Below, piece by piece: positions 56,744 to 59,817 of a DNA stretch of 64,000 nt. Location of the stretch: the NCBI GenBank assembly GCA_902775025.1, contig CACYKP010000002.1:15558-79557 (forward strand), read 5' to 3'. Numbering within the stretch: the first letter of the stretch is position 1; each line of letters opens with the position of its first letter. A model generated the notes under the pieces. The model did not search any database and had not been told where the DNA came from. It saw nothing but the letters and a program-made list of their open reading frames with translations. Source of the stretch: an uncultured bacterium (GTDB lineage Bacteria; Cyanobacteriota; Vampirovibrionia; Gastranaerophilales; Gastranaerophilaceae). A program made the position numbers and the translations under genes.

Positions 56744-58042
56744 TTATCCCTTTAGTCTCCAATAGTATTCGACTAAATAACTTATTGCATCAAACGGGTG
56801 TTCGAGAAATTTATATTCACGGTTTGATTTAATTTGGATATGTGTGGGAACATCTACGATAGAAGTTCCTTCTTTGAAAGACAGGTTGTAAATATTGTAT
56901 AAAATCCATTTACATCTTCTGGGATCAATAAAAACGTGTCTTTCGCCTTTTGAATTTCGGACTCTTGCGTTAAAGGCGGAGATGCGGTTCATTATAGGCG
57001 GGTTGTAGTTTCTTAGTCGGAATTTTACATCTTCATAACCGTGTTCTTTTAGGGCATTTTTTATTATTGCATAGTTTGTGTATTCGCTCTGTGTACTTCT
57101 ATTGTCGCCAGAAGCATCACCATTTATTATAATTTCGGATTTATGATTTGGGTATCTTTTTATAAATTCTTCAATACATTGTTGAGTTGAAGTATTTTCA
57201 ATTACTATTTCGTCAAAAAAATAGACATCTTCTTTGTCTTTGTGAGCAACAGCCCAGCACATAGGATCTACGTTAAAATCACAGGTAAGGTGTAGTGGTA
57301 AATTAGGGTTGTATTTGAGATGAAGCTTATTTTCTTCATCAAATCCTTTTACAACAAGTCCTGATGTATAGTTTCCAAATTCACCGAGAACATTAATCCT
57401 ATAGTATTCTTCGTCAAAGCTTTCCTTCATAGACTGAATAAAGTGCGGGGGCAAATAAATATTGTTAGTCGTGGGGGCAATAATTAGTCGGTAGTTTTCC
57501 TTAGAGTGTTCTACGAATCTTTGATATATCCAGCCTTTATCGCCTTGCGGATTTGTGTGCCCAAAGAGGCGGTAGCGAAAATCCACCCAGTTATTGCCTC
57601 TATAAGTATTTCTTAATCTTCCTAAAAGTTGTTTAAAAGAACTGTCAGAGATTTGTGAAGCTTCTTCAATTTCAGCCCAATGAAGGTTTAGTGATTTGAA
57701 TTTTTCCGGATCATCTAACGCTGTAAAAAGAATTTCAGAGCCGTTAGAGAATTTTATTATTTTATCTATTTTATTATAGGTGTAATCTTTGTTTTGAATA
57801 AACCCAAAGTTTTCGAGGTGGTCCAAGTATGATACAAGAGTTGTTTTACGAACGAGTTCATACTCTTTAGCACCGACCATTCCTTTAGAGTTTGGATATT
57901 TCATAGCGAGCAGGATGCCCAAAAGTGAACCGCACCAAGTTTTACCGCTTCCATAGCCGCCTTGATAAATAGCGACATCGAGTGCATTATTATGCGGAAT
58001 TTCAATAAATTCTTTTTGTTTATCCAGTAGTTTATAAATCAA
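56744..58042 (-). CDS. Phage terminase large subunit (PBSX-type)
   Basis: YQGGYGSGKT Walker A, AEIEEAS Walker B, GRLR, TNP, CDFNVDP and HPFDAISY nuclease motifs; SD AAGGAGG. Confidence 0.93.
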   Translation of the reverse strand: MIYKLLDKQKEFIEIPHNNALDVAIYQGGYGSGKTWCGSLLGILLAMKYPNSKGMVGAKEYELVRKTTLVSYLDHLENFGFIQNKDYTYNKIDKIIKFSNGSEILFTALDDPEKFKSLNLHWAEIEEASQISDSSFKQLLGRLRNTYRGNNWVDFRYRLFGHTNPQGDKGWIYQRFVEHSKENYRLIIAPTTNNIYLPPHFIQSMKESFDEEYYRINVLGEFGNYTSGLVVKGFDEENKLHLKYNPNLPLHLTCDFNVDPMCWAVAHKDKEDVYFFDEIVIENTSTQQCIEEFIKRYPNHKSEIIINGDASGDNRSTQSEYTNYAIIKNALKEHGYEDVKFRLRNYNPPIMNRISAFNARVRNSKGERHVFIDPRRCKWILYNIYNLSFKEGTSIVDVPTHIQIKSNREYKFLEHPFDAISYLVEYYWRLKG

Positions 58043-58093
58043 AATTTCCTCCTTATATATTCAACAAAATATGTATTTTGATGTAAAACAATA

Positions 58094-58136
58094 AAACCCT
58101 CGCCCCTTGGGGGAGAGGGGTAGGGTGAGGGGTTTT
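58094..58136. repeat. C-rich/G-rich palindromic repeat
   Basis: AAAACCCTCGCCCCTTGGGGGAGAGGGGTAGGGTGAGGGGTTTT. Confidence 0.75.
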
Positions 58137-58149
58137 AATTAATTTTTAT

Positions 58150-58774
58150 ATGTCATTTTCTTTGACCGCAAAGAAAATGACGAAAAGAAACTCCCCAAGC
58201 TGAACTACGTTCACTAATCAATTGTACAGTTCGACCTGAGCAACTTAACTCGGGATTTTCAGGGATAAATGGCTATGGAAATTAAAAACCAGAAGAAAAA
58301 ATGTATTCTTCCATTTATCAACCTGCCAATCCCTCAAACAGAAGTTGCTTTGTAGTTGTCTCACTAACATTGATTGTTCACTTCGTAAAGCTTGGGTCTC
58401 TGCTTGTTTCATCAACGCAAGAAAAAAATTTATTAACTAAAACATAGAGGGGTTTGGGGCATTACGGAATGAGCAAACAATCTAGGTGAAGCAACAACAA
58501 AGAGAGTGTTGTTTGAAGGGCAGGCGGGTTGGTAAATGTCTGCTTGTAAAAAACTCCAAGTTATACTTTCCAGAGTACATTTACCCCCGAAAGTCCTGAG
58601 TTCACTCGATTAGGCTGAGCCGTAGAATTGTTTAGCGAATGTAGTGTCAGCCCGTCTTGGATTATTCGGGGTGTCGGCAGAGTAACGTCTGACCGACACC
58701 TTACGGGCTTACGCCCTACCGAAAATCCGCCAAGAGTTTCTTTTTCCACTTTCTTTACGGCTAAAGAAAGTGGA
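58150..58774. repeat. About 625-bp foldback element of two diverged inverted arms with hairpin ends
   Basis: 58199-58389 aligns to the reverse complement of about 58463-58651; terminal hairpins match; AT/TA-rich flanks. Confidence 0.8.
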
Positions 58775-58851
58775 TATAATATAAGATAACAAAATTACAC
58801 TAAATTAATAATAAATGTTTTACATCAAAATACATAAAATGGTGTATAAAT

Positions 58852-58885
58852 AAAAAGCAAGGTTTGAAAACAAACCTTGCTTTTT
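58852..58885. terminator. Bidirectional terminator separating tail genes from terL
   Basis: AAAAAGCAAGGTTTG-AAAA-CAAACCTTGCTTTTT. Confidence 0.8.
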
Positions 58886-58892
58886 ATATCCC

Positions 58893-59351
58893 CTACGCCC
58901 ACTTACAAAATATTGTCTGAAAGCACGCTACTGAATTTTTCATCAAAAACCTTTTAAATCTGTTTACTCCGCTTGTTTCCAGAAGCGTGTTAAAAACAAC
59001 AGTAGAAAAACTTCTGTCGTTATCAATATATTCGTGATGCTCACACAAGATATCGTGGATTAATGCAGGAATTAAAAACCTGTTATCAGTATTAGCACCT
59101 ATAATACGCCAAAAAATACGTGGAATAGATGCCCCGTCATAACAGTATCCTTTTGGAATAGAAAATTCATACTGCTTATTTTTTCTGTAGTCGTTCAATT
59201 GGACTTTCAATTCTTTTTTACAAATAAAAGGGTATTTTTCAATAGATTTTTTTTCATCTTTTGTCATAGAAGGAATATAATATCTTATTCCGACGGAGGG
59301 ATTTTCGTTGAAGAAAATTCCGACATTTTTATTTTTACACCAGCAAATCAT
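58893..59351 (-). CDS. DUF1353-family phage protein
   Basis: IPKGYCYDGASIPRIFW...ALIHDILC; start 59351 with GGAGG SD. Confidence 0.85.
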   Translation of the reverse strand: MICWCKNKNVGIFFNENPSVGIRYYIPSMTKDEKKSIEKYPFICKKELKVQLNDYRKNKQYEFSIPKGYCYDGASIPRIFWRIIGANTDNRFLIPALIHDILCEHHEYIDNDRSFSTVVFNTLLETSGVNRFKRFLMKNSVACFQTIFCKWA

Positions 59352-59352
59352 T

Positions 59353-59817
59353 TTATTCCTCCGATATTCCGTTTGCAGGTAATTCTTTATTTTCAAACAG
59401 GTAATCCATGTCATCAGATGTGTAGCCTAAAAGCAATCCAATCATATCGACTGTTCTGTTTCCGTCTTTATCAGTTGCCCCTCTGTAGAAGTTGTTTGCT
59501 CTAAATTCTATTGCTAAAGCTTTCAAATCAATTTGAGGTGCTTGTTGTGCAATTAAATTTTTGAGGTCATCAAAGTCCATTCCCAAACCGTAATACAATG
59601 CTCTTTCAACATCTGAAGGAGTAAGGGTTAAGCTATCAAGTCTTTGACGTTCTTTTACTTCTATTTCTTCAGGTGTAAGGTATTCACCATTATATAACTG
59701 ATAATCAATATCAGTTTCTTCAATAGAAGTATAAACCATAAATTTAAGAGCTTGTTCAAGTTCTTCTCTTGTATCTTTTGCTAATATTATTAAATTATTA
59801 TTCTTTGCTATAAACAT
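59353..59817 (-). CDS. Putative tail-fibre assembly/chaperone-like protein
   Basis: Directly downstream of and overlapping the fibre gene; YQLYNGEYLTPEE..E pattern. Confidence 0.45.
   Translation of the reverse strand: MFIAKNNNLIILAKDTREELEQALKFMVYTSIEETDIDYQLYNGEYLTPEEIEVKERQRLDSLTLTPSDVERALYYGLGMDFDDLKNLIAQQAPQIDLKALAIEFRANNFYRGATDKDGNRTVDMIGLLLGYTSDDMDYLFENKELPANGISEE

Follow-up and report, generated by a model that had tools for sequence, protein, structure and literature searches.

The window, a stretch of 64,000 nucleotides from the genome of an uncultured bacterium of the family Gastranaerophilaceae, includes a gene for the large terminase subunit (terL) and a DUF1353 gene that, in relatives, lies immediately upstream of terL. 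Here the two genes are 850 nt apart, compared to 73 nt or less (mostly, 4 to 60 nt), without the element described below, in 20 of the 25 relatives compared; in the closest relatives, the gap holds just a hairpin and a ribosome-binding site. Approximately 800 nt are inserted between the hairpin 3' of the DUF1353 gene and the terL ribosome-binding site, and there is no open reading frame of at least 100 aa within this copy of the element. The first-pass annotation had described a foldback of 625 bp; the foldback is indeed there, but the true element is longer, extending from a palindromic box at approximately 58059-58086 to the inverted copy of this box at approximately 58820-58847, so that almost the whole DUF1353-terL gap is occupied. 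The features of the locus, in window positions, are the following.

56744-58042, reverse strand: terL (context), large terminase subunit, 3' of arm B (Pfam Terminase_3, 1.2e-23)
58059-58086: left terminal box, a 28-bp near-palindrome with 11-6-11 layout that abuts the terL ribosome-binding site
58097-58132, forward strand: nested G/C-rich repeat CCCTCGCCCCTTGGGGGAGAGGGGTAGGGTGAGGGG, from a separate repeat family
58152-58401, reverse strand: arm B, consisting of a rod hairpin, the linker TTTCTTTT and a 3' hairpin (58152-58181), reading toward terL
58221-58248, reverse strand: promoter-like motif in arm B, directed outward toward terL, conserved in the family
58402-58448: AT-rich centre between the heads of the arms
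58449-58774, forward strand: arm A (whole), with a 77-nt nested insertion
58449-58653, forward strand: rod hairpin of arm A, beginning with GGGGTTTGGGGC
58601-58628, forward strand: promoter-like motif in arm A, directed outward (TTCACT, 16 nt, TAGAAT)
58654-58730, forward strand: nested insertion of 77 nt that interrupts the closing helix of arm A in its 3' strand
58731-58774, forward strand: linker of arm A (AGAGTTTCTTTTT) and its 3' hairpin (TCCACTTTCTTT acggct AAAGAAAGTGGA, 58745-58774)
58775-58847: AT-rich tail of arm A and right terminal box
58850-58887: perfect 17-bp hairpin just 3' of the DUF1353 gene, in the host flank outside the element
58893-59414, reverse strand: DUF1353 gene (context; Pfam DUF1353, 3.2e-14)

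The element is a dimer in which two homologous, diverged arms are arranged head to head. Arms B and A, in inverted orientation, are 68.5% identical in a MAFFT alignment of 58150-58440 (forward strand) with 58480-58774 (reverse strand), with 148 identical positions, 41 transitions, 27 transversions and the insertion of approximately 77 nt in the right arm; the excess of transitions between two inverted arms, noticed on initial inspection, is thus confirmed. All the stems quoted at that stage were located in the sequence at 58150-58774. The internal stem of the left arm, GATAAATGG (58264-58272) paired with CCATTTATC (58311-58319), has its right-arm counterpart in GGTAAATGT (58531-58539) paired with ACATTTACC (58577-58585), and the terminal stems are formed by GTCATTTTCTTT (58152-58163) with AAAGAAAATGAC (58170-58181) on the left and by TCCACTTTCTTT (58745-58756) with AAAGAAAGTGGA (58763-58774) on the right; the latter strand, originally given as AAAGAA-GTGGA, is in fact ungapped. 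The extra GC stem of the right arm is present as well (GGTGTCGG, 58670-58677, with CCGACACC, 58693-58700), and belongs to the 77-nt insertion, which folds as a separate domain. In canonical copies of the arm, 58653 is joined straight to 58731, and the copies on contigs C8 and C55 share the insertion.

An arm generally consists of an irregular rod hairpin of 170 to 250 nt, then a pyrimidine linker, and lastly a 3' hairpin of 13 bp. Both arms are recognized by the same covariance model (R1), arm B with 250.3 bits (E 7.5e-71) and the rod of arm A with 199.3 bits (E 5.6e-56). The predicted folds are far more stable than those of shuffled sequences (z-scores of -6.4 and -6.7, the latter being -6.69 for arm B; no shuffle was as good). 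Among 33 arms of the genus, double compensatory changes occur in 40 of the 57 pairs, 97.6% of cells are paired compared to 83.1% in shuffles (none of the 500 as high) and 33 to 50% with slid partners, and the covariation score is 0.46 compared to 0.19. The rod was predicted again from a structure-blind alignment of 29 arms from other genera, with 31 pairs, 27 of them covarying. Thus, the fold is kept by compensatory substitutions, in agreement with the earlier proposal that selection acts on each arm as a structured unit. That proposal had been tied to a test in which a lack of covariation would go together with MITE-like scatter of the copies; the scatter is observed, yet the covariation is very strong. 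Conservation extends to loop bases and to a central internal loop. The covariation support is as strong as that for accepted large RNA classes, yet the family is absent from Rfam: Rfam 15 gave no match at the gathering score over the whole window, and over the region of the element at E values up to 10, all matches were implausible (best E 0.12) and 6S RNA was not matched.

The fold is strand-specific. The forward (centre-outward) strand is the more stable one in 31 of the 33 arms of the genus and in all 29 arms from other genera (60 of 62 altogether), the consensus energies being -62.0 kcal/mol for the forward strand and -43.3 kcal/mol for the reverse strand; among the 51 pairs predicted on both strands, there are 29 G-U cells versus 7 A-C cells. 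Because the fold favours the centre-outward strand, arm A is the 'right' way round on one DNA strand and arm B on the other.

The 3' part of the arm shows a further regularity, in that the linker and the purine strand of the 3' hairpin match each other in parallel (Hoogsteen, triplex-type) register; in arm A, the pyrimidine linker is a mirror of the 5' hairpin strand. The module order, TTTCTTTC, 5 nt, CTTTCTTT, 4-6 nt, AAAGAAAG, agrees with the sequence definition of the class IV (pyrimidine) intrastrand triplex motif, that is, a Hoogsteen pyrimidine, a Watson-Crick pyrimidine and a purine segment on one strand, with stems of 6 to 15 nt, loops of 1 to 6 nt, and T-A-T and C-G-C triplets in parallel register (PMC4666352). 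A full-length parallel linker match is found in 78 of the 153 arms (the copies being related) compared to a mean of 54 and a maximum of 64 after permutation, and the rare purine variants AAAGAAAA and AAGAAAA are matched by the linkers TTTCTTTT and TTCTTTT. Some variants carry G where C is expected, and the bases of the 5-nt 'spacer' are themselves paired, with covariation, so that the triplex and the full hairpin may be alternatives. Among the intrastrand triplex motifs known as PIT elements, TMECO, or BoxC (Holder et al. 2015, PMC4666352), is a stand-alone, G/C-rich purine motif (class II) of 34 to 37 nt that forms inverted pairs of types A and B, like the arms of the element. Unlike TMECO, the motif of the arms, which has the class IV order, is AT-rich, of the pyrimidine type and only the 3' module of a far larger rod. 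A true TMECO-like sequence is nested inside the element at 58097-58132, where it matches the TMECO/BoxC consensus CCCTCNCCC-N3-6-GGGNGAGGG-N3-GGGNGAGGG (PMC4666352); it is inserted between the 3' hairpin of arm B and the left box and is absent from the otherwise ~89% identical B arm of the G076:C5 copy.

Arm A is the amplified arm type in this genome, where at least 13 arm copies are present on other contigs; counted with fragments, at least 13 are spread over 12 contigs. Identity to these copies is 86 to 96% (C27, with two copies, C29, C8, C59, C11, C16, C44, C32, C41, C55 and others), and the rod of arm A in particular is 88 to 93% identical to the copies on C27, C29, C8, C59, C11, C16 and C44. 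The neighbours in this genome are the housekeeping genes fabG, acpP, fabF and uvrB, and members of the family adjoin fab genes, uvrB, secY and others. The dimer itself recurs in other genomes at unrelated sites: positions 58134-58653 of the window are 89% identical to G076:C5 over 528 nt, and the same dimer is found in G102:C201 at 84% identity, in both cases with unrelated flanks. Both in this genome and in many others of the family, unrelated loci harbour dimers, monomers and short variants, in elements of 370 to 830 nt; the copies carry nested insertions and deletions. The covariance model matches 59 of the 116 sampled genomes of the family, in 16 of the 44 genera, with up to at least 13 matches per genome; blastn matches are found in 28 of the 97 species of the genus, and more than 114 contig stretches contain a 20-mer from the 3' hairpin, almost all of these stretches belonging to Gastranaerophilales or Melainabacteria MAGs. 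The repeat is therefore abundant, being present in half of the sampled genomes of one bacterial family, often in a dozen or more copies. The suggestion of a MITE-like element is supported by this scatter over intergenic regions that are unrelated to one another, here and in many other genomes, and orthologous sites (the terL, G000:C11 and G000:C58 loci) differ between genomes in the presence or absence of the element. The fabD-fabG, C16 and terL loci are occupied in several species by differing forms (dimer, monomer or short arm); such shared loci look inherited rather than newly acquired by insertion, so that part of the spread appears to reflect vertical descent with rearrangement.

Gut and rumen Melainabacteria are uncultured, and to our knowledge, their non-coding DNA is essentially undescribed; a literature search for MITEs or non-coding RNAs of Melainabacteria yielded nothing specific. 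The repeat is undescribed. The foldback at the terL locus is probably a full copy of an interspersed A/B repeat that encodes no protein and is found in Melainabacteria (Gastranaerophilales) of the gut and rumen, the best interpretation being a non-autonomous, MITE-like mobile element that acts as a folded single strand. Under this interpretation, the element would be selfish, non-autonomous, MITE-type DNA that some enzyme mobilises in trans, and its arms would act as folded single strands. There is a nearly even chance that the folded strand is RNA, that is, the outward transcripts, in which case the arms would represent a new structured RNA class on mobile DNA; quite possibly, it is single-stranded DNA during movement or replication, in which case they would represent a new kind of strand-specific signal. 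The near-random orientation of the copies fits DNA parasitism and is equally compatible with RNA and single-stranded DNA: in this genome, 7 of the 10 monomers are antisense to their neighbours, and in a wider set, 28 of the 42 monomers share the strand of their upstream gene, so a rule of orientation relative to neighbouring genes was dropped. A fold this conserved across 16 genera exceeds what is seen in most MITEs, and the element could have a host function.

The ends of the element bear on how it moves. The terminal inverted repeats are boxes of 22 to 28 nt that are exact or near-exact reverse complements (22 of 22 positions in C27b, 28 of 28 in C16). Each box measures 28 bp in an 11-6-11 layout, and its 6-bp centre is asymmetric (TATGTA, TGTATA, TATGCA and similar) and inverted between the two boxes in every element examined; in the window, the left box (core CAACAAAATATGTATTTTGATG at 58062-58083, central TATGTA) repeats, in inverted orientation, the right box (core CATCAAAATACATAAAATGGTG at 58823-58844, central TACATA). 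Genomes with elements contain 5 to 33 boxes compared to 1 to 6 in those for which blastn gave no hit. As a candidate target-site duplication, AT is found on either side of most copies, although this dinucleotide is self-complementary and could be part of the repeat; the empty sites show one whole box instead of a clean target.

Dif (pdif) modules of Acinetobacter plasmids exploit Xer recombination, and the element resembles them in being a short module with inverted 28-bp 11-6-11 sites and a single site at unoccupied loci. The boxes could be Xer/dif-type tyrosine recombinase sites, with the element a site-bounded module that integrates, excises or inverts, an interpretation that, judged from the layout of the sequence, we regard as unlikely but the most serious of the alternatives. 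It would account for the asymmetric centre inverted between the ends, for the presence of exactly one box at the empty loci G000:C11 (~23.8 kb) and G000:C58:12243 where G101 and G076 have box-element-box, and for the arrays of G076:C13 in which elements share boxes. Simple integration of a circle, however, would give direct rather than inverted sites, no recombinase gene adjoins the elements among the flanking open reading frames, and deletion between two near-palindromic boxes could equally leave a single box. The terminal repeats of other genera differ in sequence, and, beyond the layout and the TGTATA-like centre, the boxes, with their symmetric arms, show no resemblance to known dif sites; unlike pdif modules, the element is gene-free and has no linked recombinase. 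The recombinase-site reading competes with the MITE reading solely over the mode of movement. Somewhat more doubtful still is a combined view in which a new class of functional, strand-specific nucleic-acid fold, consisting of a rod with an embedded promoter-like duplex and then a pyrimidine-motif triplex hairpin, is arranged as an A/B heterodimer and is moved or inverted via the 28-bp Xer-like sites rather than by a transposase. In such a heterodimer, each DNA strand, or each direction of transcription, would present one working copy. If true, the element would amount to a mobile module bounded by recombinase sites and carrying nothing but a structured RNA or a single-stranded DNA signal, such as a triplex-stabilised RNA, or a promoter or origin of the single-strand type.

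No mobilising enzyme or parent insertion sequence with matching ends was found in a search that covered few transposase families and genomes. An omegaRNA associated with TnpB was discounted since the genome contains no Cas12f1-like_TNB domain, and an IS630-type parent since DDE_3 is missing from five genomes. RAYT genes were considered too; none of the eight Y1_Tnp genes in five genomes has an arm, box or hairpin motif within 1.5 kb. An IS4-like element (G000:C39) is single-copy, has its own unrelated 24-nt ends and shares just a 10-mer with the box. The matches to rve, all except one (G076:C1), are under the Pfam cut-off, within long open reading frames. A composite transposon formed by the two C27 copies was rejected because the intervening DNA encodes fabG, acpP and fabF, as was an autonomous element in G199:C14, where arms surround a 347-aa open reading frame that is coiled-coil-like and has no transposase signature. 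Among 147 open reading frames flanking the elements, no protein family recurs.

The element shares features with several known systems. The Correia/NEMIS elements of Neisseria and ERIC/IRU elements of enterobacteria are single hairpins of 100 to 160 bp in which the left half pairs with the right half. Like these, the element is protein-less, intergenic and multi-copy, with terminal inverted repeats, long hairpins and size variants that result from internal insertions and deletions, and such elements can carry outward promoters; unlike in Correia and ERIC, each arm of 170 to 250 nt is a rod in its own right, the two arms are of diverged types with the best folds on opposite strands, and no parent insertion sequence was found. 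PATEs, which derive from IS200/IS605, have no terminal inverted repeats, and both their hairpins act on the same strand. The element resembles them as hairpin-ended, protein-less DNA with a strand-specific fold in a genome with Y1 transposase genes, but its ends are true inverted repeats and its arms favour opposite strands. With its dif-like palindromic ends, a 3' module of the triplex type and two diverged rods optimised on opposite strands, the element differs in architecture from described bacterial MITEs. REP units are 20 to 40 nt long and REPINs approximately 100 nt, the doublets being moved by RAYT (Y1 HUH) transposases (PMC3116915), and GTAG-tagged REPs have been described (PMC3733652). 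The likeness to REP, BIME and REPIN lies in the inverted doublets of hairpin units, the compensatory evolution and the presence of Y1 transposase genes in these genomes; furthermore, the 5' module of the monomers carries a GTAG-tagged REP-like hairpin, a 17-nt palindrome with GTAG+GTCAGGTTCCACCTGAC on the other strand. Unlike in REPINs, the units are rods of 170 to 250 nt, the arms themselves have no GTAG tag, and the Y1 genes are not flanked by elements.

The properties of the arms also evoke structured promoter mimics. Frpo/ssi, the sso of rolling-circle plasmids and 6S RNA are rod-like imperfect hairpins of 150 to 300 nt that function on one strand and in which the stem presents or mimics the -35 and -10 promoter elements. 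The arm rods likewise contain a conserved TTnnnn-16/17-TAcAAT motif with a bulged -10; in arm B, the motif is TTAAGT (58248-58243), 16 nt and TACAAT (58226-58221), and sits in paired positions, so that a promoter function would be conjectural. Whereas the arms are multi-copy, each of these look-alikes is either one host gene or a component present once in a plasmid or phage, and the Rfam search gave no similarity. It appears improbable that the arms are functional small RNA genes, encoding a 6S-like rod that binds RNA polymerase or another regulatory RNA, in divergent pairs for which dispersal is secondary. The very strong covariation in a strand-specific fold, the persistence of the family across 16 of the 44 genera, the conserved loop bases and central internal loop, and the promoter motif embedded in the rod are all compatible with such genes, and a pyrimidine-motif triplex is possible in RNA (PMC4666352). 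Conversely, the number of copies in a genome ranges from 0 to at least 13, blastn matches are confined to a minority of the species of the genus, and the copies bear nested insertions and deletions. There is no conserved upstream promoter, the head-to-head spacing goes down to 0 nt, and neither an intrinsic terminator after the arms nor an Rfam match was found. A central bidirectional promoter was rejected for related reasons: a consensus scan detected no excess of promoter-like sites over shuffles, and 0-nt spacers leave no room for it.

It is very unlikely that the foldback arose by accident, through two independent insertions of monomeric MITEs head to head. This genome contains many A monomers and a single B arm, which would fit such an accident, but the same A/B dimer, centre included, is found at 84 to 89% identity in other species, and head-to-head pairs of A-like and B-like arms recur across genera with gaps of 0 to 51 nt. 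Such pairs occur at 17 loci of the genus and at 9 of the 19 loci from other genera; among 85 classified elements, 19 are head-to-head and 3 tail-to-tail.

The interspersed repeat has no specific link to terL. The least credible reading, a terL-specific leader, regulatory RNA or phage packaging (pac/cos) site, as contemplated in the first-pass annotation, draws on the position directly upstream of terL with arm B reading toward it, on a related unit at the same place in G076 (preceded by a hairpin like that at 58850-58887) and on one IMG/VR contig with an arm between phage-like genes, but is contradicted by the emptiness of this position in almost all relatives compared, though terL is present in 75 of the 80 genomes of the genus (84 to 92% amino-acid identity), and by the presence of the same element at many loci unrelated to phage genes. 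In a blastn search of a phage GenBank collection, the sole match was 36 nt to the nested G/C-rich motif. The repeat is easily mistaken for a regulatory leader, as happened at terL. Here it separates co-transcribed genes of a conserved phage-derived module and possibly re-wires the expression of terL, which may receive from arm B both a promoter directed outward and a long structured leader; any such effect at this locus would be incidental. The repeat family also breaks assemblies: eight contig ends of this MAG fall inside the repeat.

The foldback upstream of terL was inserted there and belongs to a dispersed repeat family. The two inverted arms described in the first-pass annotation are confirmed by alignment: 58150-58440 and the reverse-complemented stretch 58480-58774 agree at 148 positions (68.5% identity) and differ by 41 transitions and 27 transversions, the right arm being longer by a block of ~77 nt; all the stems quoted there are found in the window sequence, and single arms fold far more stably than dinucleotide shuffles (z of -6.4 and -6.7). 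Beyond the arms, there is an inverted repeat of 52 nt (58039-58090 with 58816-58867), with one 28-bp near-palindromic box per end.

56744-58042, minus strand: terL (Pfam Terminase_3, 1.2e-23)
58043-58892: non-coding gap between the DUF1353 gene and terL, 850 nt
58152-58401, minus strand: arm B (left)
58449-58774, plus strand: arm A (right)
58893-59414, minus strand: DUF1353 gene

Both genes fall within the fetched locus in 25 relatives, and in 20 of these the spacing between the DUF1353 gene and terL is at most 73 nt, mostly 4-60 nt, compared to 850 nt in the window. In the closest relatives, this gap holds a hairpin and a ribosome-binding site, and nothing more; in another Gastranaerophilales genome, G076, a single related short unit occupies the same position. 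terL was found in 75 of 80 genus genomes (84-92% amino-acid identity); with the DUF1353 gene, it seems to form a phage-derived module that has been domesticated and conserved, not a prophage. Within the genus, terL is single-copy and usually follows the DUF1353 gene at a distance of 4-60 nt (window 56744-59414, loci L040-L068).

In the 2.29-Mb assembly that contains the window (G000), copies of the type A arm with 86-96% identity are present on contigs C27 (two), C29, C8, C59, C11, C16, C44, C32, C41, C55 and others, a count that is a lower bound because eight contig ends fall inside the repeat; the type B arm in the window is the sole one in this genome. The copies elsewhere in the genome occupy ordinary intergenic regions (for example, fabG-acpP-fabF beside uvrB is flanked by two of them), which excludes the earlier suggestions of a terL leader or a packaging site. 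A full monomer in this genome, with one arm, consists of the following parts, in order:

box
REP-like hairpin GTCAGGTGGAACCTGAC, then CTAC (GTAG on the opposite strand)
~60 nt, AT-rich
rod hairpin
linker and 3' hairpin
AT-rich tail and inverted box

The window copy differs from the monomers in having two arms head to head and in the absence of the 5' modules. Just upstream of one monomer, C27b, the frame of fabD (malonyl-CoA-ACP transacylase) appears to be split into two ORFs that overlap (206 and 130 aa; L038:1260-2166; G000:C27:29259-30165), possibly through a frameshift or through an error in the assembly.

The repeat family was detected by blastn in 28 of the 97 other species of the genus. 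Of the 116 genomes sampled from the bacterial family, 59 have matches to a covariance model of the arms (R1), which was positive for 16 of the 44 genera of the order, with at least 13 matches in some genomes and arm lengths of 165-220 nt. Searching the species-representative collection for a 20-mer from the 3' hairpin gave more than 114 contig stretches, which with few exceptions are labeled as Gastranaerophilales, Melainabacteria or rumen/gut MAGs; the few contigs with full arms that are binned to other phyla are probably mis-binned. In one IMG/VR contig, an arm lies between co-directional phage-like genes. A search of Rfam 15 yielded no match to the element, and neither Rfam nor the literature searched contains a description of the repeat family.

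The arm fold is real and strand-specific. RNAalifold analysis of an alignment of 33 genus arms (A2) gives a consensus of 57 pairs, namely a long irregular rod of eight helices and a separate 13-bp 3' hairpin, with double compensatory changes at 40 of the 57 pairs; in the closing helix, for instance, A arms have TTGGGGC/GCCCCAA and B arms CCCAAGC/GCTTGGG. Paired cells amount to 97.6%, against 83.1% in shuffles (0/500 as high) and 33-50% when partners are slid by 1-3 columns, and the covariation score is 0.46 compared to 0.19 in the control. The compensatory changes and the dispersed copies support the initial reading of each arm as a MITE-like structured unit under selection. The consensus energy is -62.0 kcal/mol for the forward strand and -43.3 kcal/mol for the reverse complement, 31 of the 33 arms fold more stably on the forward strand, and the 51 pairs that the predictions for the two strands share include 29 G-U cells versus 7 A-C cells. 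The rod was also recovered when 29 arms from other genera were aligned without regard to structure, with 31 pairs, 27 of them covarying, and 29/29 of these arms are more stable on the forward strand. Forward here means reading outward from the dimer center, so that arms A and B have their optimum on opposite DNA strands. The strand preference does not tell RNA from single-stranded DNA because the G-T wobble is also the mildest DNA mismatch, and could also stem from transcription-linked mutation bias.

The linker that precedes the 3' hairpin reads GAG-TTTCTTTC, the mirror image of the hairpin 5' strand CTTTCTTT; it could thus pair with the purine strand AAAGAAAG in the parallel Hoogsteen mode (T-A-T, C-G-C). 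The 3' module accordingly looks, by its sequence, like a pyrimidine-motif intrastrand triplex, with the order and loop sizes that Holder et al. (PMC4666352) give for their 'class IV' motif; according to that paper, the motif can form in RNA too. Variant purine strands are accompanied by matching linkers (AAAGAAAA with TTTCTTTT in 3/3 arms, AAGAAAA with TTCTTTT in 2/2, AAAAAA with TTTTTT in 3/3), and the bases flanking the linker fit the parallel register, not the alternative Watson-Crick pairing. The linker matches over its full length in 78 of 153 distinct arms, compared to a mean of 54 (maximum 64) with linkers permuted, although the copies are related and their independence is overstated. 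Some variants have G in place of the expected C. The 5-nt 'spacer' of the module is itself base-paired, with covariation, so the triplex and the full hairpin may be alternative states.

Chance joining of arms head to head can be rejected given that the A/B dimer recurs in other species and genera. The dimer on G076:C5 matches window 58134-58653 (both arms and the center) at 89% identity over 528 nt, and that on G102:C201 matches it at 84%; in both, similarity ends at the element, and the flanks have no match. A head-to-head pair of one A-like and one B-like arm is the commonest form across the genus and is also found at 9 of 19 loci in other genera. The 85 classified elements comprise 63 monomers, 19 head-to-head (gaps of 0-51 nt) and 3 tail-to-tail forms. 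The G076 and G102 dimers occupy the locus of monomer C27b in this genome, and the C16 locus is filled in four species, with differing forms; therefore, occupied loci are partly inherited and then remodeled. Arrays occur as well: three boxes spaced by 462-463 nt (G076:C13:15422-16368) and three arms in direct tandem (G153:C2:218582-219544).

The boxes have an 11-6-11 layout (e.g., ATACAACAAAA-TTTATA-TTTTGTTGTAT), and the asymmetric 6-bp center is in opposite orientation in the two boxes of every copy checked. Five element-bearing genomes contain 18, 33, 14, 5 and 8 boxes, and five genomes without blastn matches contain 1, 6, 2, 1 and 2; with the pattern reversed as a control, the counts are 0-1. 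Terminal repeats of elements in other genera differ in sequence, yet are again AT-rich palindromes. Two sites in this genome (G000:C11, ~23.8 kb, and G000:C58:12243) have exactly one box and no element, where G101:C1 and G076:C8, respectively, have box-element-box. Such sites fit site-specific recombination or an insertion into palindromes that were already there, and equally deletion between two near-palindromic boxes; they are not the trace that a classical DDE transposon would leave. The best explanation is a non-autonomous, structure-constrained family of foldback repeats, which either a transposase or a recombinase may move. No TnpB was found in a profile search of this genome, no IS630-type DDE in the five genomes searched, and no recurring protein among the ORFs flanking elements. 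The one IS4-like insertion sequence (G000:C39:4473-6046; L123:1130-2703; 1574 bp, single-copy), which encodes a DDE_Tnp_1 transposase of 481 aa and has inverted ends of 24 nt (TTTGTTCTTTCAAAATATGATTCA), was rejected as the mover, its ends being unrelated. A 347-aa ORF in G199:C14 (L263:1086-2129), between secY and a nucleotidyl-transferase gene and flanked by two outward-facing arms, is not a transposase; it belongs to no Pfam family, begins with MGMSASQARFLSLTARK and has a C-terminal coiled-coil. Eight Y1 (HUH) transposase genes in five genomes have no element motif within 1.5 kb. Three IS200-like Y1 genes of 174-185 aa in this genome (G000:C6:1751-2113, G000:C6:15879-16223 and G000:C20:69475-69846) are not flanked by the element and may be RAYT-type partners of one of the REP-like families.

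The 3' half of the rod contains an outward-reading TTnnnn-16/17-TAcAAT in 29/33 genus arms and 19/29 arms from other genera. In the window, the arm B motif (TTAAGT-16-TACAAT) points at terL and the arm A motif (TTCACT-16-TAGAAT) outward, so arm B may supply terL with a promoter and a structured leader. The hexamers are in paired positions, and hence their conservation may be structural; promoter-like sites were no more frequent than expected in a consensus scan.

The extra 77-nt block of arm A (58654-58730) is a nested insertion that folds as a separate domain. With its own GC hairpin, it sits at the identical point of arm A in three copies (window; G000:C8:68810-68922; G000:C55:1-116); the C8 copy has an additional ~100-nt insertion, and a stretch 76% identical to the block stands alone at G000:C17:13464-13549. 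Another nested repeat, the G/C-rich CCCTCGCCCCTTGGGGGAGAGGGGTAGGGTGAGGGG at 58097-58132, is a near-exact fit, in a Melainabacteria genome, to the TMECO/BoxC intrastrand-triplex consensus of E. coli (PMC4666352) and explains the only match in the phage collection (36 nt at 91.7%). The GTCAGGTGGAACCTGAC hairpin with CTAC of the monomers (e.g., G000:C27:33880-33900), which is also present at L026:547-563 and 1515-1531, in L087 and in L093, behaves as an independent REP-like repeat: it is present without arms in other genomes, and on G016:C41 lies on either side of two small ORFs. A different, GC-richer and structured-looking block (…tggcggcgtcctcccgagc…gggtttacccg…, with flanking AAGAAGAAAA tracts) occurs in L102 (G076:C8:121800-123300), L087 and L093. 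This block is placed between the same boxes or beside the same REP-like hairpin, and the element ends seem to be common to more than one kind of cargo.
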